Part shown: positions 1 to 14,175 of the stretch, one piece after another
Position numbering within the stretch: the stretch's first letter is position 1
How the letters are laid out: each line of letters begins with the position of its first letter
Notes under the pieces: model-generated
Databases searched by the model: none
Seen by the model: only the letters and a program-made list of their open reading frames with translations
Told to the model about the DNA's origin: nothing
Virus genome (UHGV): UHGV-1738303
DNA from: a virus
DNA length: 14,725 nt
Strand: one strand, 5' to 3'
Translations under genes and position numbers: made by a program

Positions 1-420
1 CACTTTGGTTTTGTCTACCTAGTGTACTGCAAAAAGACTGGACAGTACTATTTGGGTAAGAAACAGCTTAACAGTGTGACCAAAAGAAAAGTTGCTGGGA
101 AGACTCGGAAGAAGGTAGTCACTAAGGAAAGTGATTGGATGACTTATGAGACTTCTTCCGAGTATATTAAAAAAGATATTGAGAGCTTTGGAAAAGAATT
201 TTTTGACTTTTACATTATTCAGACCTACTACACAAAAGGTGGCCTAGTCTATGGTGAAGCAAACCTTCAACATAAATTCGATGTAATGACAAAAAGGATT
301 GAATCGAAGCTCAGACTCTTCTACAATGCCAATATTGCAGCAATTAAGTTTATTACTAAAGAAACTTATGAAGATGCTGAAAAAAGAATCCATAAGGTAA
401 TGAAAGCAAATTGTGCTTGA
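1..420 (+). CDS. Hypothetical protein, 5' end probably outside the window; possible degenerate GIY-YIG-like N-terminus
   Basis: Frame 1 is open from base 1 to the TGA at 418-420; the GTG at 22 is the only in-window start candidate. The first residues GFVYLVYCKKTGQYYLGKK resemble the GIY...YIG spacing of GIY-YIG nucleases, but the downstream Arg/His/Glu catalytic residues are not recognisable. Confidence 0.45.
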   Translation, partial: HFGFVYLVYCKKTGQYYLGKKQLNSVTKRKVAGKTRKKVVTKESDWMTYETSSEYIKKDIESFGKEFFDFYIIQTYYTKGGLVYGEANLQHKFDVMTKRIESKLRLFYNANIAAIKFITKETYEDAEKRIHKVMKANCA

Positions 421-441: not shown

Positions 442-690
442 ATGTTTAACAAAAGCAAAGCTGTGAGTCATGTAGCAAAAGTTGACAGTAAGATTGAAGA
501 ACTTGAGCGCATTCTTGCAAATGCTAGAGAATCAATAATTAAAGAAGTTGAAGCTGTTGAATCACAAATGCAGCACCTAATGCTTAAACGCCAAGAGCTA
601 CGTGAGCATCTAGAATATATTGAAACACGAGAGCTAAAGGTTAACAGATATTTTAAGGAGTCCAAATGTTTAACTCAAGAGAATCAGTAA
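442..690 (+). CDS. Hypothetical small protein, predicted coiled coil
   Basis: ATG at 442 preceded by the purine-rich TGAGAGAGA motif 6 nt upstream; the ORF track TTG at 427 is rejected as start. Translation is rich in E/K/R/L with heptad-like periodicity (IEELERILANARESIIKEVEAVESQMQHLMLKRQELREHLEYIETRELK). Confidence 0.5.
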   Translation: MFNKSKAVSHVAKVDSKIEELERILANARESIIKEVEAVESQMQHLMLKRQELREHLEYIETRELKVNRYFKESKCLTQENQ

Positions 691-1421
691 AAAACTGGAA
701 TCTTCGTTGTGGAAACACTCAAAAACAACCTTACAGTAATGAGTATTGGGAATCTTTGAAATCTCAATCTCTGTGTATGCTTGAAGAAGCAAAAGAGCTT
801 GTAAAAGCAATTGAAGAGAAAGACCCCATTGAGACACTGGATGCTCAGGCAGATTTGCAATATGTTCTTGACGGTTTGATTTACCTGTCACAACATGACC
901 ATAACGGTGCTATGAAAGCTGTTTGCCATAATAATGACCTGAAATACACAGATGACTATGAAGAGGCTTTAAAACGTCTTGCAGACATTGAAAAGCGTAC
1001 TGGTCAAGAGTGTATTATCAGAATGTCAGTAGTTGATGGTAAAGAGTGGTATGCGATTGTCCGTGCAGCCGATGGGAAGATTATGAAGCAATCAAATCTC
1101 CCTAAAGTACAGCTTGGTGAATACATTGTAGAGCTTGAAAGCCAAGAACTTTTTGTGGTAGTATCTGAGACATGCGTTATCTGCAAAGGTATTGTAGGTA
1201 GCTTAAAGGATTTGGGTGTAGATGGTTTTGTAGAAGTTAATCCAATTACCTCTAAAGCAGATAAAGACTTCTGTAAAGAGAATGGACTATGGATTGCAGA
1301 TATTGTCTACTATGATGGTGAGCAGTTCCATGTAACCTCATACCCGAAACTGAATTATGATGCTAATAACCTGAAGTGCTGGTTAAAAGGGGTTGGTTAT
1401 AATGGATTCACAGAACATTAA
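666..1421 (+). CDS. Hypothetical protein with possible N-terminal MazG-like all-alpha NTP pyrophosphohydrolase motif
   Basis: Strong SD AAGGAG at 655-660, 5 nt before the ATG at 666; 251 codons. Segment LEEAKELVKAIEEKDPIETLDAQADLQYVLDGLIY matches the EExxE ... ExxxDxLxxVL pattern of MazG/dCTPase-type pyrophosphatases; the C-terminal half is unassigned. Confidence 0.6.
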   Translation: MFNSRESVKNWNLRCGNTQKQPYSNEYWESLKSQSLCMLEEAKELVKAIEEKDPIETLDAQADLQYVLDGLIYLSQHDHNGAMKAVCHNNDLKYTDDYEEALKRLADIEKRTGQECIIRMSVVDGKEWYAIVRAADGKIMKQSNLPKVQLGEYIVELESQELFVVVSETCVICKGIVGSLKDLGVDGFVEVNPITSKADKDFCKENGLWIADIVYYDGEQFHVTSYPKLNYDANNLKCWLKGVGYNGFTEH

Positions 1422-6209: not shown

Positions 6210-8354
6210 ATGAACAAAGTACAGATTATTAAAAAGAATGGCTCACTTGAAGAACCTGATATCAAAAAAGTTTTAGCAGCAGTCACAAAGTCAGCTAACA
6301 GAGTTGGTTATAAAGAGCTTCCACCAGATGTTACTCAAGCTCTTGAGTCAGCATTCATGAGGATTTTGGTAAAGTCCACTAAGCAGAATAATTTGCTTAT
6401 CTCGGTAAATGATATTCACAGTATTGTTGAAGGTGCTTTGGCAGAAGTTAATCACGAGATTTATGAGTCTTACTCAACATACAGAAATTACCGTAAAGAG
6501 GTTGCTCAAAATTGGGATGAACTCTACCAGAAGACTAAAGATACACTCTTCTTAGGTGACCGTGAAAATGCTAACTTTGACAGCAGTTTAATTTCTACGA
6601 AAGGTTCAATTATCCGTGGTTACCTGACTAAAGAAATCTTTAAACAGTACCATTTAACACCAGAGGAACTTGAAGCCATTGAAAAAGGATTTATCTATAT
6701 CCATGATTTAAGAGACCTAATTTTTGGTGGTATCAACTGTTGCCTGTTTGACATTGGTAAAGTCCTGAAAGGTGGCTTTGAAATGTCTGGCATCGAATAT
6801 TGTGAACCAAAGTCTGTACTGTCGGCCTTACAGGTTATAGGTGACGTAGTTCTTTCAGCAACTGCACAGCAATTTGGTGGTTTTACTTTAGCAGAGATTG
6901 ATAAGGTACTTGTGCCGTATGCTAAGAAGTCTCTACGCTATCATGCTGAGAAAGCAGCATCTTATGGTATTCCTAAAGAACATTACCACAATTATGTCAT
7001 GGAGCAGCTACAGATTGAACTGACTCAAGGTTTCCAGTCACTTGAAATGAAACTAAACACTGTACCTTGTAGCCGTGGGGATTTTGCATTCACAACTTTG
7101 ACATTCGGGCTACTTGACTCAGATATGTCCAATGAAGATAACCGACTGCAATATATGATTGCAAGTACTCTCCTAGATGTTCGTATGAATGGACAAGGTA
7201 AGAGCAAGAAACCTGTTGTATTCCCTAAACTGGTTTATATTTATGACCAGAAGAGACATAATGAGAATATCTGTCAAGGCCACCTGTACAGTAAAGCTAT
7301 AGAGTGTTGCTCTAAAGCGATGTATCCAGATTTCTTAAGTGTATCTGGTCATGGTGCTGTAGCAGAGGCTTTTGAGCGTTCTGGCAAGGTTATTTCGCCG
7401 ATGGGTTGCCGAGCGTTCTTATCTCCGTATCTTAACGAGAATGGGGAAGAGTTCTACGTTGGTCGTGCTAACATTGGTGCTGTATCTTTGAACTTACCAA
7501 TGATTTACCAGTATTCTAAAGAGAATGGTTTAGATTTCTGGAAAGAGCTTGATAAGTACCTAGAGATGATTCGCAGTTTCCACAAGAAACGCTACGAAAT
7601 GATTGCTAATATGCCAGCAAGTTCTAACCCTCTTGCATTCACACAAGGTGGTCTGTACAAAGGGACTAAGAAACCTACTGACAAGGTTGGTTGGGATATC
7701 GTGAAGTCCTTCACAGCTTCTTTTGGGGTTACTGCTCTTGATGAACTGTCTGTTCTTGCTGAAGGTAAACGACTTCATGAAGTTGGAAGATATAGTTTTG
7801 CATACGATGTTCTGGAATACATCAACATGAAAACTGAAGAGTTTAAGAACGAAGATGGCTTCTTGTATGCGGTATATGGCACTCCAGCAGAATCACTTTG
7901 TGGAACTCAGTTAAAACAGTTCAGAGATATGTTTGGCGTTATTAAAGGTGTCTCTGACAAGGAATACTTTACAAACAGTTTCCATATGAATGTTGCAGCA
8001 GACATCTCACCATTTGAGAAGCAGGACTTAGAAGAGCCATTCTTCCATATCTGTAGAGGTGGCAGAATCCAGTATGTAAGGGTAGCTAACCCAGAAAACT
8101 TAACAGCACTTAAAAGTTGTATTACCAGAGGGATGTTGAAGGGTTTTTATCAGGGACTTAACTTTGACTTAGCAATCTGTGAACATTGTGGTAACAGACC
8201 AAAGGCTGATGTTGAAGAATGTGAGGTTTGCCATTCACATGATATCTCTGTGATTAACAGGGTGTGCGGGTATCTTGGGTGGACCAAGATTAAAGGTGAA
8301 TCCCGAATGAACGATGCAAAAATCGCTGAGATTCGTGATAGAGTCTCTATGTAA
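6210..8354 (+). CDS. nrdD: Anaerobic ribonucleoside-triphosphate reductase, class III
   Basis: 714 aa; N-terminal ATP-cone-like KVQIIKKNGSLEEPDIKKV; C-terminal Zn-ribbon cysteines CEHCGNRPKADVEECEVCHSH followed by the glycyl-radical motif RVCGYLGW. Continuous reading frame, no intron. Confidence 0.93.
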   Translation: MNKVQIIKKNGSLEEPDIKKVLAAVTKSANRVGYKELPPDVTQALESAFMRILVKSTKQNNLLISVNDIHSIVEGALAEVNHEIYESYSTYRNYRKEVAQNWDELYQKTKDTLFLGDRENANFDSSLISTKGSIIRGYLTKEIFKQYHLTPEELEAIEKGFIYIHDLRDLIFGGINCCLFDIGKVLKGGFEMSGIEYCEPKSVLSALQVIGDVVLSATAQQFGGFTLAEIDKVLVPYAKKSLRYHAEKAASYGIPKEHYHNYVMEQLQIELTQGFQSLEMKLNTVPCSRGDFAFTTLTFGLLDSDMSNEDNRLQYMIASTLLDVRMNGQGKSKKPVVFPKLVYIYDQKRHNENICQGHLYSKAIECCSKAMYPDFLSVSGHGAVAEAFERSGKVISPMGCRAFLSPYLNENGEEFYVGRANIGAVSLNLPMIYQYSKENGLDFWKELDKYLEMIRSFHKKRYEMIANMPASSNPLAFTQGGLYKGTKKPTDKVGWDIVKSFTASFGVTALDELSVLAEGKRLHEVGRYSFAYDVLEYINMKTEEFKNEDGFLYAVYGTPAESLCGTQLKQFRDMFGVIKGVSDKEYFTNSFHMNVAADISPFEKQDLEEPFFHICRGGRIQYVRVANPENLTALKSCITRGMLKGFYQGLNFDLAICEHCGNRPKADVEECEVCHSHDISVINRVCGYLGWTKIKGESRMNDAKIAEIRDRVSM

Positions 8355-9892: not shown

Positions 9893-9988
9893 TTATTCTG
9901 GCAAATGGACTAAGGTATAACTCCAATTGGTATCACTGAAGAAGAACTTCATAAGTTCTGTATTAAACTTTAATGAGAGAGACTAAAA

Positions 9989-10255
9989 ATGGGAATTTTA
10001 GGTAATATGAAAGCTGGATTCTTGAAGGCATTGGCAAAAGCAGCAGCAATTGTTTCTATGACTGGAAAGCAGGTCGGTGTAGATGCTTCAGCGGTTGCAC
10101 AGGTTCTTACAAGCCAAATTGAACAGCAGCCTTACATCTACGTAGGGCGTGGTAAAGGTGGTAAGAAACAAGCCCACCGCCAATCTGGTGCAGCAGCTAT
10201 TAAACGAGCAGCTAAGAAAGCTCGTAACCGTAAACGTAATAAGAAGGCTAAATAA
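9989..10255 (+). CDS. Hypothetical small basic protein (amphipathic helix plus Lys/Arg-rich tail)
   Basis: 88 aa; N-terminal GFLKALAKAAAIVSM amphipathic segment and C-terminal KRAAKKARNRKRNKKAK; TGAGAGAGA motif 7 nt upstream of the ATG. Confidence 0.5.
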   Translation: MGILGNMKAGFLKALAKAAAIVSMTGKQVGVDASAVAQVLTSQIEQQPYIYVGRGKGGKKQAHRQSGAAAIKRAAKKARNRKRNKKAK

Positions 10256-10257
10256 TC

Positions 10258-10578
10258 ATGAGCAAAGTTTATAACACTCGTAAATTACAGATTTTCTTAC
10301 TGTGCCAGTTTATGGCTAGAGAGCATAACTCCTACTATTGTGGTACAGGATTCATTAGTGATAATGATGGCTCATATCTCCCATTCAAAGAGGCTGTAAA
10401 ACTCTTCAATGAAGAGAAAAGCTCTGAGAAAGATATTGAAAAGGTTAAATTAACCTATAGTAAGAAAGACAAGAAGATTATCTGCCTAGATAACTTTGTG
10501 AAAGTTACCAAAGAAACTAAAGAGTTAATGGAAGAAAGTGAAATTCCATTCACAAGAATCTTGAAAGTAGCTCAGTAA
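10258..10578 (+). CDS. Hypothetical protein
   Basis: 106-codon ORF starting 2 nt after the previous stop; followed by a terminator hairpin. Confidence 0.45.
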   Translation: MSKVYNTRKLQIFLLCQFMAREHNSYYCGTGFISDNDGSYLPFKEAVKLFNEEKSSEKDIEKVKLTYSKKDKKIICLDNFVKVTKETKELMEESEIPFTRILKVAQ

Positions 10579-10590
10579 GCAGATACTATA

Positions 10591-10620
10591 AGGGAACTGT
10601 AAAGGTTCCCTTTTTATTTT
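10591..10620 (+). terminator. Intrinsic terminator hairpin
   Basis: AGGGAAC (10591-10597) / tgtaaag / GTTCCCT (10605-10611), followed by TTTTTATTTT. Confidence 0.65.
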
Positions 10621-10629
10621 GGAGATAAC

Positions 10630-11145
10630 ATGTATCTGTCAAACCTGAAACGTTCTGCTGCAATGTCAGTGTTAAGACTCAGTTTTGATGAGCGTCAAGA
10701 GTTTATAGACTCCCACAAATATGACCCTTCAAATTCTAATCACATGGTTCTTTGGAATCGTGATAACTTCCGTGAAAGAGCACTTGTCCGTTATTACCCA
10801 CACTACACAATAGATAACCTGTATGAATGGTGTGTTGTGAAGAACACCATTGCAACACTGAACAATCTTTGCAGGTATACGGGTAAGCAAACATTTACAT
10901 TAGGTCATCACAAACCTGTTACAAAAGGTGGTGAACATCACTGTGCAAACTGGTTTATCCAAACTAAAGCTGATAACCAGAAGCAAGGAGATAGCCTCCT
11001 AAGTATCCCTAAGATGACCTATGAAGAGCAAGAGAAATATATCAAAAATAATATGCCAGATGTGCTTGACAACAACTATACAGATTTGGCAATATCTCTC
11101 CTGTTGAAGTTCGAGACAGTTTATAGGGCAACTTATAATGGCTAA
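10630..11145 (+). CDS. HNH-family endonuclease (possible free-standing homing endonuclease)
   Basis: 171 aa; HNH-like core CRYTGKQTFTLGHHKPVTKGGEHHCANWFIQTKADNQKQGD (His-His pair, GG, Asn ... Asn); GGAGA 4 nt upstream of the ATG. Confidence 0.65.
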   Translation: MYLSNLKRSAAMSVLRLSFDERQEFIDSHKYDPSNSNHMVLWNRDNFRERALVRYYPHYTIDNLYEWCVVKNTIATLNNLCRYTGKQTFTLGHHKPVTKGGEHHCANWFIQTKADNQKQGDSLLSIPKMTYEEQEKYIKNNMPDVLDNNYTDLAISLLLKFETVYRATYNG

Positions 11146-11416
11146 AGAAAAGTGGGAGATTTTACCATTAGTCAGTGAAGGAGGTAATGGTTGTGAAATG
11201 TACATGATACGTGGTCATGTTCCAGAGCCAATTGCACTTGAGATGGTAAACAACTTTACAGATGGTTCTTACAAAGACTTAGGCGAACCAACTGTCAAGC
11301 AACAATGGGTTAAACCTGTACCAGACAGCACAGGTAACTGTAGTGTACTTTATCACGTTGTAGACCCTGCAAAATGCAAATCTGCAATGGCAGTAACAAA
11401 CGTAACTTTTGATTGA
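11138..11416 (+). CDS. Hypothetical protein
   Basis: 92-codon ORF overlapping the HNH stop by 8 nt; its TGA stop forms part of the TGAGAGAGA motif preceding the next gene. Confidence 0.45.
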   Translation: MAKEKWEILPLVSEGGNGCEMYMIRGHVPEPIALEMVNNFTDGSYKDLGEPTVKQQWVKPVPDSTGNCSVLYHVVDPAKCKSAMAVTNVTFD

Positions 11417-11427
11417 GAGAGAAAACT

Positions 11428-12309
11428 ATGAAAACATCTATCCGTGTTACAGTTCATTCACCAACTAAAGGAACTCATGAAGAAGAGTTTAACATCATCC
11501 AATTTCCTTCTGGTGAGATTGGTGGACACTTTTCGCCAGAGTTTGTTGATTTCACTGCTTATGCAGCATCATCCATCAACAATGTGATTATGATTGTAAA
11601 AGGTTATGATAAGGATACATTGTTTGCTGTGGCACTTGCTAAAGAAGCAATTGATGATTTAATTCCTCATGATTATGCTTTAAAGACTGTCATCTTTTAC
11701 TACTTACCAAATGCACGTTATGACCGTCACATGTTTAAAGGCGACGCAGCAGCTTTAAAGGTTTTTGCTAAACAGGTAAATGCAATGGGATTTGGTGCAG
11801 TCTGTGCAGTTGACCCTCACAGTTACGTTCCAGATAACCTGTTTAACTGCTTCCAGAGTATTCCTCAAAAGGAGATTGCAGTCCACTATGCAAATGACCC
11901 ACTGGTTGATTACTTAGTAGCCCCAGATGCAGGTGCTGCTAAGAAGGTTGCAGAGACCGCTAAAGAGGTGGATAAACCATATATCACAATGTCTAAGGTG
12001 CGTAACCTTAAGACTGGTGAAATTACTGGTATGCGAATCCTTGATGATGTTGATTTGACAGATAAAACCGTCATGATTCTGGATGATATCTGTGATGGTG
12101 GTCGAACCTTCATAGAAGCAGCTAAGCATCTTCGTGAAGCAGGTGCAAAACGTGTGGAACTCTATGTAACACATGGTATCTTCTCTAAAGATGTTGAAAA
12201 CCTTCTTGACAATGGCATTGACCACATCTACACTACAAACTCTTTAGGGGAAGCTAAAGACCGTGGCTTAACACATTATGGTCAAGTTACTGTAGCAAAC
12301 CTTGATTGA
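11428..12309 (+). CDS. Ribose-phosphate pyrophosphokinase (Prs) family protein, divergent; candidate ADP-ribose pyrophosphokinase (Adps-like) of an NAD+ reconstitution pathway
   Basis: 293 aa from the ATG at 11428 (track TTG at 11413 rejected). Prs-family blocks: YLPNARYDR (cf. PYFGYARQDR), VDPHS (cf. VDLHA), VAPDAGAAKKVAETAK, VMILDDICDGGRTFIEAAKHLREAGAKRVELYVTHGIFS (cf. [38 protein letters not shown]). The ribose-5-phosphate loop reads DGGRT rather than canonical DTGGT, and the GFFD motif is missing. Confidence 0.85.
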   Translation: MKTSIRVTVHSPTKGTHEEEFNIIQFPSGEIGGHFSPEFVDFTAYAASSINNVIMIVKGYDKDTLFAVALAKEAIDDLIPHDYALKTVIFYYLPNARYDRHMFKGDAAALKVFAKQVNAMGFGAVCAVDPHSYVPDNLFNCFQSIPQKEIAVHYANDPLVDYLVAPDAGAAKKVAETAKEVDKPYITMSKVRNLKTGEITGMRILDDVDLTDKTVMILDDICDGGRTFIEAAKHLREAGAKRVELYVTHGIFSKDVENLLDNGIDHIYTTNSLGEAKDRGLTHYGQVTVANLD

Positions 12310-12318
12310 AACTTTATA

Positions 12319-12339
12319 GGGGCTTAAAAGCCCCATTTT
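12319..12339 (+). terminator. Hairpin (weak intrinsic terminator) between the Prs-like and NAMPT-like genes
   Basis: GGGGCT (12319-12324) / taaa / AGCCCC (12329-12334), followed by ATTTT. Confidence 0.5.
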
Positions 12340-12354
12340 GAGAGAGATTAAAAG

Positions 12355-14136
12355 ATGACTAAATCACTTTATGCAGTACCAGCAGGTTTAAATGCAGATG
12401 CTTACAAATCTGGTCATGTTTACCAGTATCCTAGCGCAACAGAGTACTTGATGTTCAATCTGACACCACGTAGCGACAAATGGTTTAACAGCCCCTTAGC
12501 AATTGACGGTGTAGTAGCTTTTGGTATTCAACGTTTTGTTAAAGATTACTTGATAGACCACTGGAATGCCACTTTCTTTGAACGTGATAAAAAAGAAGCA
12601 ATTGACGAAATCTTAGAAGTCATGAATGGTGTTCTGGGTAAAGATGCTATAGGTCGAGAGCATTGGGAAGCACTTCACGACTTAGGCTATCTACCAGTTG
12701 AAGTATACGCTGTAGAAGAAGGCACAGTTGTCCCTATGCGTGTTCCGATGATTGTTTTCCAGAACACTGTTTCAGGTTTCCATTGGGTAGCAGGTTATCT
12801 GGAAGATGCTTTCTCTGCTGAGATTTGGAAGGCTTGTACCATTGCAACTATTGCATTGCACTACAAACGTATCTGTAAGAAGTGGGCTGACCTTACTTGT
12901 GACAACGACTTGCATTTACCTTATCAGTGCCATGACTTTGCTATGCGTGGTATGTCCGGCTTTACTGATGACGCATTTAACGCTGTAGGCCACTTAACCA
13001 GCTTTAAAGGAACTGATAGCTTTCCTGCTGTGTATACGGCTAAACGAATCTATGGACAGTCCTACCCAATCTCTGATATTGGTAGCTCTGTACCAGCCAC
13101 TGAGCACTCTGTAATGTGTGCAAACATTGCTTGGGAAGGTGGTAATGAGTTGATTGAAGAAGAAAGACGCTTTAAAGGTGAGTTACAAACCTTCCGTCGT
13201 TTCTTAACAGAAACTTACCCAACGGGTATTGCAAGTATTGTTTCAGATACTTATAACTTCTGGAGAACTGTGTCAGAAATCTTACCAGCACTCCGTAAAG
13301 AAATTATGGAACGTGACGGTAAGCTGGTAATTCGCCCTGACTCTGGAGACCCTGTACATATTGTCACAGGTTACAAAGCAATCCACTTAGAGTGTGCTAA
13401 AAAGGCTTATTACGAGCACCTAAGCAAGCTAGAGGCAAGTGATACAATGCTGAACTCTGTCCTGAACATGAAGCTTGAAAACATTAACTATGGTATTGCT
13501 GGATGGCTACTGTCAGAAGGCTACGAAATGGTTGTTGACAGAGAAGACTTTGAAGTTGCTGATACGGTGATGTTGAAGAATGCTTATATGGTTGGTTCTG
13601 CAAACGTTGTAACACGTCCTGTAGCTGAGATTGATGGGGCTATTAAGACACTGTATAACATCTTTGGAGGAACTATCAACTCTAAAGGTTTTAAAGTACT
13701 GGATGAGCATATCGGGCTTATTTATGGCGACTCTATCACGTTGGAACGTGCAAACGAAATACTGAAGCGTTTGTATGAAATGGGTTTTGCAAGCTCTAAC
13801 GTAGTGTTTGGTGTAGGTTCTTACACTTACCAGTACATGACTCGTGACACCTTTGCATTTGCTGTCAAAGCAACTCTTGCAAGCATTGGTGGTAAAGAGA
13901 TTATGCTTGCAAAAGACCCTAAAACAGATAGTGGTGTTAAGAAGTCTGCTTTTGGTGGTGTAGCACCTATGTGGGATGGTGAAAATCTGAAAGCTGTAGA
14001 TGGCTATGGGTTCCAGAGCTTTGCAGATGCACTTGAACACCCAGCTTGTGCTTTGCGTCTAGTCTTTAGCGACTCTGAGCAGTTCGGTTACACAACTCTT
14101 GGTGATATTCGAAATAATATTGACAAGCAGCTTTAA
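12355..14136 (+). CDS. Nicotinamide phosphoribosyltransferase (NAMPT/NadV) family protein, long form; candidate nicotinamide ADP-ribose transferase (Namat-like)
   Basis: 593 aa; NAMPT blocks LNADAYKSGH (cf. LATDSYKVTH), HDFAMRG (cf. HDFGYRG), SFKGTDS (cf. NFKGTDT), VPATEHS (cf. VPAAEHS), IVSDTYN (cf. VVSDSYD), VIRPDSGDP (cf. IIRPDSGNP), LIYGDSI, FGVGS. About 100 extra residues relative to typical 470-495 aa NAMPTs, apparently inserted between the RPDSGDP and GD motifs. Confidence 0.88.
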   Translation: MTKSLYAVPAGLNADAYKSGHVYQYPSATEYLMFNLTPRSDKWFNSPLAIDGVVAFGIQRFVKDYLIDHWNATFFERDKKEAIDEILEVMNGVLGKDAIGREHWEALHDLGYLPVEVYAVEEGTVVPMRVPMIVFQNTVSGFHWVAGYLEDAFSAEIWKACTIATIALHYKRICKKWADLTCDNDLHLPYQCHDFAMRGMSGFTDDAFNAVGHLTSFKGTDSFPAVYTAKRIYGQSYPISDIGSSVPATEHSVMCANIAWEGGNELIEEERRFKGELQTFRRFLTETYPTGIASIVSDTYNFWRTVSEILPALRKEIMERDGKLVIRPDSGDPVHIVTGYKAIHLECAKKAYYEHLSKLEASDTMLNSVLNMKLENINYGIAGWLLSEGYEMVVDREDFEVADTVMLKNAYMVGSANVVTRPVAEIDGAIKTLYNIFGGTINSKGFKVLDEHIGLIYGDSITLERANEILKRLYEMGFASSNVVFGVGSYTYQYMTRDTFAFAVKATLASIGGKEIMLAKDPKTDSGVKKSAFGGVAPMWDGENLKAVDGYGFQSFADALEHPACALRLVFSDSEQFGYTTLGDIRNNIDKQL

Positions 14137-14150
14137 AAGTATATGATAAG

Positions 14151-14175
14151 AGGCTCCTACGGGAGCCTTTTTAAT
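14151..14175 (+). terminator. Intrinsic terminator hairpin after the NAMPT-like gene
   Basis: GAGGCTCC (14151-14158) / tacg / GGAGCCT (14163-14169), followed by TTTTT; the stem is the arm-swapped relative of the hairpin at 2062-2080. Confidence 0.65.

Follow-up and report, generated by a model that had tools for sequence, protein, structure and literature searches.

We analysed a 14,725-nt stretch of DNA from the virus genome UHGV-1738303 (the window), in which a small open reading frame (ORF), ORF171, lies between a block of ribonucleotide reductase genes and a prs/nampt gene pair. The original prediction, made from the sequence of the window, took ORF171 for an HNH endonuclease that had perhaps homed into this locus or that marked the neighbouring NAD module as an acquired moron. 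Our results favour a different account: ORF171 is probably a vertically inherited, non-mobile, one-domain accessory gene of the HNH superfamily, which heads the NARP1 unit and which selection maintains for a role in counter-defence. The present analysis shows the fold class, conservation, synteny, purifying selection and secondary losses; expression timing, dispensability and the phenotype against retron Ec67 are taken from the literature.

The gene and its predicted fold

Judged by DNA identity, the source phage is Felix O1-like (Felixounavirus, Ounavirinae) and not T4-like, since positions 9900-12400 of the window are 100% identical to Felixounavirus LF82P1 and nearly all of the 256 phage records matching this segment are Felix O1-like phages of Escherichia, Salmonella, Shigella and Citrobacter. 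ORF171 starts with the ATG at 10630, stops with the TAA at 11143-11145 and encodes a product of 171 aa. It is a real, expressed gene, because its ratio of nonsynonymous to synonymous substitution rates (dN/dS) lies at 0.09-0.14 in comparisons with Felix O1, SUSP1, Maleficent and phiWec172, which denotes purifying selection, and because the transcript of its Felix O1 orthologue, ORF125, has been detected by reverse transcription PCR, along with those of ORFs 124-130 and with a peak at 25 min.

Upstream of the gene, the hairpin at 10590-10612 is identical in sequence to terminator t124 of the Felix O1 genome paper (PMC3185647). In Erwinia phage Roscha1 the ORF171 homologue is likewise preceded, at this spot, by a hairpin, but its stem sequence differs, which argues that the hairpin is a real structure. 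Directly before it stand sigma-70-like hexamers at 10561-10589 that match the consensus at 9 of 12 positions; taken alone, this is not above chance. Felix O1, SUSP1, Maleficent and Roscha1 retain both hexamers and the distance between them (TTGCAA, 17 nt, TAGTAT in the last), and we infer that the site is a promoter.

The prs/nampt pair downstream corresponds to the NARP1 NAD+-reconstitution operon (adps and namat), found as genes 79-80 of the BASEL phage Bas63 (bioRxiv 10.1101/2024.02.11.579819), which is by taxonomy a felixounavirus. ORF171, a second small ORF (orf92), adps and namat all lie between the hairpins 10590-10612 and 14148-14171, and in both 10561-10612 and 14120-14171 the sigma-70-like hexamers stop exactly at the first base of the terminator stem. 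This arrangement suggests that ORF171 is the first cistron of one terminator-bracketed, middle-expressed unit with orf92, adps and namat. Transcripts would begin inside the 5' arm of the hairpin and, lacking the full stem, would escape termination and read on.

Several points of the original prediction hold for this layout. The ORF at 10630-11145 is indeed free-standing, with its own terminator and ribosome-binding site (hairpin 10590-10612, GGAG at 10621-10624), and the predicted ribonucleotide reductase block does lie upstream of it (nrdA, nrdB, grx, nrdD and nrdG). Its placement just upstream of Prs/NAMPT was nearly right, except that a 92-aa ORF at 11138-11416 intervenes. The T4-like setting, by contrast, gives way to a Felix O1-like phage with 100% identity to LF82P1.

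Motif databases recognise the ORF171 protein poorly. A Pfam scan gave no HNH match at E <= 1; in PHROG the protein is a member of phrog_3500, "unknown function" (5e-93), and matches HNH families weakly (2.3e-6), while an NCBIfam scan picked up no more than the HNH region of IscB, and that faintly (0.035). PADLOC matched neither ORF171 nor its neighbours. Within the family the signal is clearer: homologues as distant as 31% identity all share G92, H93, P96, G100, G101, H103, N107, W108 and N116, no variation occurs at H93, N107 or N116 across 28 family sequences, and these core residues fit an H...N...N form of the HNH motif. When a profile of the 28 members was run against 1.84 billion representative proteins, 21 clusters matched and no more, and its weakest significant matches were proteins that pass Pfam HNH at ~1e-11. 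Profile-profile alignment (hhalign) of the family with these Pfam-HNH proteins gave 98.2% probability and placed H93, N107 and N116 on the canonical residues; as the comparison set was made of the profile's own weak matches, this test is not fully independent.

Predicted structure points the same way. An AlphaFold2 model built from the family alignment forms one compact domain (mean predicted local distance difference test score, pLDDT, 91.8; predicted TM-score 0.88), in which family-specific helices wrap a beta-beta-alpha core made of strands 89-93 and 108-112 and helix 113-119 (block-mean pLDDT 90-94). In a Foldseek search of the PDB the top ranks are almost all HNH domains (Cas9, Gme HNH nickase, McrA), at E >= 0.28, and in the BFVD viral library family members come first, followed by phage HNH endonucleases (Aeh1 at 3e-3). 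With Cas9/IscB HNH domains, Gme HNH nickase and McrA the model has in common a beta-hairpin plus helix core, the His...Asn...Asn pattern, a GG turn and, following the His, a Pro. Running the profile against PDB sequences yielded spurious protein A repeat matches only, and ORF171 contains no CxxC zinc sites or zinc cysteines. Since profile-profile comparison, Foldseek matches and the AlphaFold model agree, we assign ORF171 by remote homology to the HNH (beta-beta-alpha-metal) superfamily, as a divergent member. The HNH label of the original prediction therefore stands as remote homology (hhalign, AlphaFold2 and Foldseek) and fails as a Pfam HNH match.

One residue departs from the expected pattern. 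Immediately ahead of the catalytic His, at a position that Asp, His or Glu fills in HNH enzymes, the Ounavirinae and Stephanstirmvirinae members invariably have Gly (G92); in distant T4-like relatives D/E-H persists at the G92-H93 position. Catalytic competence of ORF171 is plausible on this pattern of residues.

Inheritance and loss

With tblastn the ORF171 protein was found in 429 phage records, always as one copy per record, and at the DNA level 241 records contain at least 80% of its length, compared with 252 records for prs. Felix O1, SUSP1 (Suspvirus), Maleficent (Mooglevirus), Roscha1 (Kolesnikvirus), a Hafnia phage, Bas63 and a metagenomic relative share the order nrdG ... ORF171 ... 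prs ... nampt, and the position of ORF171 is retained in Felixounavirus, Suspvirus, Mooglevirus, Kolesnikvirus and the Hafnia phage at 31-95% amino acid identity. The gene diverges in step with its neighbours: for five Ounavirinae relatives amino acid identity is 95/77/78/44/33% for ORF171, 82/76/77/40/38% for prs and 97/75/75/46/49% for nampt, ORF171 being better conserved than the neighbouring small ORFs, and its synonymous divergence (dS) equals that of prs (e.g. 1.18 vs 1.11 for SUSP1). In the Stephanstirmvirinae a homologue of 38-42% identity occupies a different, equally fixed place, 0 or 1 gene upstream of a UvrD-type helicase gene. No NUMOD, AP2, IENR or helix-turn-helix DNA-binding module was found in ORF171 by the Pfam scan.

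Some genomes lack the gene, and none of the 7 ORF-less records examined carries an intact ORF-less allele. Five felixounavirus records (S19cd, GEP101 and three SP/SEP phages) have a DNA methylase gene in the ORF171 region. In Salmonella phage S19cd (4109-4986) a CcrM/BabI-like adenine methylase cassette replaces the equivalent of window 10744-11311, so that most of ORF171 is gone and orf92 has lost its first 58 codons; SP4 retains the first 114 nt of ORF171 and nothing more of the ORF, and in GEP101 the methylase is present at 98% identity. The S19cd locus was considered as an ancestral empty site and rejected, as the methylase is flanked by remnants of both genes, 38 codons from the start of ORF171 and the final third of orf92. 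In Salmonella phage GE_vB_7A (1529-1536, in a record marked UNVERIFIED) a deletion of ~716 bp between two CTGCAATG repeats (window 10658-10665 and 11382-11389) has removed ORF171 and orf92 and left a 20-codon in-frame fusion; this locus, too, was rejected as an empty site because of the CTGCAATG repeats that bound the deletion. Finally, the Felix O1 variant FO1a, a Salmonella phage, lacks the equivalent of window 10951-13116, a 2.2-kb deletion that spans the 3' end of ORF171, orf92, prs, an HNH_3 gene and the 5' part of nadV, and the whole module is therefore dispensable for propagation.

From these comparisons, ORF171 is a single-copy, vertically inherited, non-mobile gene of Felix O1-like phages, and its absences, as far as the aligned records go, are secondary events with no ancestral empty site behind them. 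It is also dispensable on laboratory or defence-poor hosts, since natural deletions and replacements exist and since the SUSP1 orthologue agp073 and its neighbours scored "Not Fit", that is, neutral, in a CRISPRi-ART transcriptome-wide knock-down (PMC11879866 supplements). In phiWec172 (2217-2732) the ORF171 allele has a dS of 0.45 relative to the window, the flanking orf92 and prs have a dS of 0.11, and orf106 is 100% identical at the amino acid level; this indicates an exchange by recombination at this gene.

These observations bear directly on the evolutionary claims of the original prediction. Homing into the locus is contradicted by a gene that is single-copy, present in ~241 of 252 relatives, syntenic across genera and absent only secondarily. 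The NAD module as an acquired moron fares no better, at least as a recent event, since the module is conserved across the subfamily and the NARP1 operon was first described in a felixounavirus. The synteny comparison that the original prediction had proposed finds ORF171 at the same position across the Ounavirinae with gene order intact, which is the outcome it had itself named as contrary to its claim, and the search for an empty site in relatives turns up methylase replacement or deletions in place of an ancestral ORF171-less site.

Proposed counter-defence and alternative roles

The proposed function starts from Bas63 (Escherichia phage JohannRWettstein), whose gp77 is identical to ORF171 at 153 of 171 residues (89%) over the full length. 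Its gene, bas63_0077 in MZ501086, has 516 bp and lies two genes upstream of adps in the same gene order as in the window. In the PhageMaP preprint, deletion of gp77 gave a 10-fold lower efficiency of plating on a host with retron Ec67 and complementation restored it; the authors proposed that gp77 cleaves the multicopy single-stranded DNA (msDNA) of the retron (bioRxiv 10.1101/2024.10.10.617714). The gene numbers of the preprint agree with the locus tags of MZ501086 (g79/g80 are NARP1, g84/g85 are rIIA/B). The two proteins are thus alike as orthologues of the same length and position, with Ec67 countering reported for gp77; they differ in that the preprint calls gp77 a GIY-YIG protein whereas our evidence is for HNH, and in that the phenotype is known from Bas63 alone.

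As a counter-defence factor ORF171 would cleave, in a metal-dependent reaction, or tightly bind a nucleic-acid component of the retron pathway, the candidate targets being the msr-msd non-coding RNA (ncRNA) precursor, the msDNA or an RNA-DNA hybrid. H93 would act as general base, and N116 with D115 or H103 as metal ligand. Catalytic activity, substrate and co-transcription with NARP1 are what we infer beyond the comparisons themselves. A functional analogue exists in Rad of phage T5, a nuclease unrelated to ORF171 that reduces the ncRNA and msDNA of retrons and neutralises Ec67. T5-family Rad is likewise a small phage protein that neutralises Ec67 among others, apparently through removal of ncRNA/msDNA; unlike ORF171 it is described as TOPRIM/primase-like and not HNH, it has a broad retron range, and no homology is expected. 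The HIDEN-SEQ preprint contains no felixounavirus data.

A number of points weigh against this account and temper it. The anti-Ec67 phenotype is modest (10-fold), comes from a single preprint and concerns an orthologue rather than the phage of the window. The GIY-YIG label given to gp77 there derives from BLASTp-based descriptions and finds no support in our searches: no GIY-YIG family appeared in the Pfam, PHROG or NCBIfam scans of ORF171, and the structure matches are HNH. With Gly at position 92 in place of Asp, His or Glu, catalysis by ORF171 is not assured, and co-transcription with NARP1 is read from consensus scans and gene overlaps. A further difficulty concerns mechanism. In Eco2 (Ec67) the msDNA cages a TOPRIM nuclease, and msDNA decay, begun by DenB of the T4 type, activates tRNA cleavage (PMC12916289); inactivation of the retron by msDNA cleavage conflicts with this, because msDNA decay activates the nuclease (PMC12916289). 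Moreover, while most Felixounavirus are insensitive to Eco2, Stephanstirmvirinae are sensitive (PMC12916289), and are so restricted despite their 38-42% ORF171 homologue.

A more far-reaching version would make phrog_3500 a previously unrecognised, non-mobile HNH branch used as counter-defence and co-transcribed with NARP1, which neutralises Eco2/Ec67 by a route outside the model in which msDNA decay activates, or which processes a nucleic-acid product linked to NAD or ADP-ribose (ADPR) that feeds NARP1. Such routes might include, ahead of complex assembly, cutting of the msr-msd ncRNA or of the RNA-DNA junction, or else protection of the msDNA by shielding. We regard this version as speculative and give it a minor share of our confidence.

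It is unlikely, in our judgement, that ORF171 is instead a general DNA-metabolism nuclease (structure-specific or repair, maybe a long-domesticated homing endonuclease) whose effect on Ec67 would be indirect, via altered phage DNA intermediates. Its setting would suit such a role: the Stephanstirmvirinae homologue is found 0 or 1 gene upstream of the UvrD-type helicase in a replication/nucleotide region, the gene stands among nrd genes in all lineages, and PHROG returns a weak endonuclease VII match (0.021). Eco2 senses DNA-degrading activities, so altered DNA processing could modulate its triggering. However, the helicase linkage is absent in the Ounavirinae, and ORF171, unlike typical resolvases, is dispensable in both knock-down and natural deletion mutants; SUSP1 and SUSP2 leave plasmid DNA intact (PMC5241400), which speaks against bulk DNA degradation. 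A related idea, that ORF171 degrades host DNA to feed nucleotide synthesis, was rejected as the principal explanation because SUSP1 and SUSP2 carry the gene and release intact plasmid DNA (PMC5241400) and because its knock-down is neutral.

A catalytically dead HNH fold whose effect would come from binding, such as msDNA shielding or sequestration of a trigger, seems improbable to us. It would accord with the Gly at the metal-ligand Asp position, invariant in Ounavirinae and Stephanstirmvirinae where the distant T4-like members have D/E-H, and msDNA shielding would fit the Eco2 model of effector activation by msDNA decay. Against it, H93, H103, N107, (D/E)115 and N116 are invariant or nearly so over 28 sequences, the pattern of an active site under selection.

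No better placed is a role in NAD+ reconstitution itself, with ORF171 as an accessory phosphodiesterase that would turn a NAD-derived or ADP-ribose-linked product into a NARP1 substrate, as Adpp and RyDEP do in other phages. Recruitment of extra enzymes is known for NARP1 operons: the accessory genes for the Macro-domain protein Adpp and the RyR-domain protein RyDEP resemble ORF171 as extra genes in or next to adps-namat that widen the counter-defence range. Adpp and RyDEP, however, bind ADPR derivatives, whereas ORF171 has the fold of a nuclease acting on nucleic acids, the substrates of HNH enzymes, and the Pfam scan revealed no ADPR-handling Macro or RyR domain in it. Gene linkage is likewise two-sided. 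ORF171 heads the unit and lies within two genes of adps/namat in all Ounavirinae examined; distant ORF171 relatives that retain D-H are found 1.2-1.8 kb downstream of a NAMPT gene in a T4-like Nanhuvirus (Cronobacter phage LPCS28, L022 6980-7483) and in a metagenomic contig of the T4-like Nanhuvirus type (L017, 6001-6558) that also has an NMNAT/Nudix gene ~6 kb upstream; and a Klebsiella phage of the Stephanstirmvirinae has NadR and PnuC genes ~3.4-5 kb upstream of its homologue. In most Stephanstirmvirinae, on the other hand, the homologue is not near any NAD gene and prs is ~22 kb off, and the linkage may merely reflect clustering of auxiliary genes. The Bas63 screen, finally, assigned the countering of SIR2-HerA, Ec86 and hhe to g79/g80 and named gp77 for Ec67 only. 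We conclude that a functional link between ORF171 and NARP1 is conceivable, as a weak lead.

Least credible of all is an active free-standing homing endonuclease that cuts ORF-less alleles and whose presence points to recent lateral exchange or to a recently acquired NAD module: although ORF171 is free-standing, belongs to the HNH superfamily and sits in a region that hosts mobile endonucleases in relatives, although certain GenBank records name its orthologue "putative HNH homing endonuclease", and although the higher dS of the phiWec172 allele (0.45, against 0.11 in the flanks) suggests recombination nearby, the gene is near-universal, syntenic and single-copy, its family is limited to a few phage lineages, purifying selection on it is as strong as on the neighbouring enzymes, its predicted single compact domain comes with no NUMOD/AP2/IENR module, and every observed absence is secondary.

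Mobile endonucleases and other genes of the locus

Homing endonucleases do populate the region, as the original prediction had supposed; they are the genes described below, and ORF171 is not among them. The clearest comparison is with Felix01p237 (phrog_99), an HNH_3 gene that the window lacks and that fills 504 bp separating prs from nampt in Felix O1, SUSP1 and phiWec172. Its Pfam HNH_3 match is strong (8.7e-20), that to the AP2 DNA-binding domain weak and below the cutoff. Felix01p237 and ORF171 are both small HNH-superfamily ORFs of the same locus in Felix O1-like phages, yet Felix01p237 is multi-copy, spread over many families (6,426 places in 3,824 phage records) and sporadic among felixounaviruses (~61 records at >=80% identity), and ORF171 is the opposite on every count.

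Two further sites lie in or near the nrd genes. Window 1-420 holds the 3' part of a gene for a SegE-like GIY-YIG endonuclease (PF19835, 7.5e-21), a homologue of bas63_0057 that runs off the left end; situated upstream of the nrd block, it is plausibly a real homing endonuclease. At window 7407-7411, inside nrdD, Bas63 has a 745-bp insertion with a "putative homing endonuclease", bas63_0068, and since nrdD of Bas63 is annotated as joined, the insertion probably represents an intron. At this point S19cd carries an insertion of 319 bp, and nrdD of the window has none. In a Stephanstirmvirinae-like contig (L014 10351-12456) an ORF with an I-HmuI/NUMOD-like domain interrupts nrdD, so that here too an nrd gene hosts a mobile endonuclease.

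Along the window the order is SegE-like fragment, small ORFs, nrdA, nrdB, grx, nrdD, small ORFs, nrdG, orf88, orf106, ORF171, orf92, prs-like and nampt-like gene (Table 1). The small ORF that overlaps the end of ORF171, orf92, is conserved in Felixounavirus, Suspvirus and Mooglevirus only and is not found in the Erwinia or Hafnia relatives; it was considered as a conserved partner of ORF171 and rejected, being absent from Erwinia, Hafnia, Stephanstirmvirinae and T4-like contexts. Upstream, orf106 (window 10258-10578) encodes a DUF7390 protein (2e-15). In the Hafnia phage its homologue lies downstream of that of ORF171 instead of preceding it and bears the annotation "putative HNH endonuclease", a label for which profile scans give no support. 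Window 666-1421 encodes a 251-aa protein with an N-terminal MazG/PRA-PH-like pyrophosphohydrolase domain (PF01503, 1e-5), kept in Bas63 as bas63_0059.

Table 1. Features of the ORF171 locus, in window coordinates
Feature	Position	Strand	Remarks
Sigma-70-like hexamers TTGAAA, 17 nt, TACTAT	10561..10589	+	predicted; end exactly at first base of hairpin stem
Intrinsic terminator, stem-loop 10590-10612 (9-bp stem) and T-run	10590..10619	+	equals Felix O1 t124
Shine-Dalgarno GGAG	10621..10624	+	5 nt before ORF171 ATG; invariant in alignment of relatives
ORF171 (phrog_3500; Felix O1 ORF125/Felix01p229; Bas63 gp77; SUSP1 agp073)	10630..11145	+	divergent HNH-superfamily protein (remote homology), 171 aa
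Beta-beta-alpha-metal core, residues 89-119	10894..10986	+	predicted; alignments, AlphaFold2 model, hhalign
orf92 (phrog_4726, unknown function; 92 aa)	11138..11416	+	start overlaps ORF171 stop by 8 nt
prs-like gene (NARP1 adps orthologue; Bas63 gene 79)	11428..12309	+	Pfam/NCBIfam matches; synteny with bas63_0079
Empty site of mobile Felix01p237 (HNH_3+AP2)	12308..12339	.	prs/nampt spacer; holds small hairpin GGGGCTTAAAAGCCCC
NAMPT-like gene (NARP1 namat orthologue; Bas63 gene 80)	12355..14136	+	Pfam/NCBIfam matches; Bas63 synteny
Promoter-like TTGACA, 16 nt, TATGAT abutting terminator hairpin 14148-14171	14120..14171	+	closes unit

Altogether, the results correct the annotation of a gene carried by hundreds of Felix O1-like phages, including therapeutic and diagnostic ones, from "hypothetical" or GIY-YIG to HNH-like. 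While the modest anti-retron phenotype of its orthologue was already known, ORF171 as a divergent member of the HNH superfamily is new. The gene proves to be core and under selection, yet dispensable in the laboratory, and it would stand at the head of a putative transcription unit with the NARP1 NAD+-reconstitution genes. The comparison also exposes a conflict between the mechanism proposed for countering Ec67 and the published mechanism of Eco2 activation.

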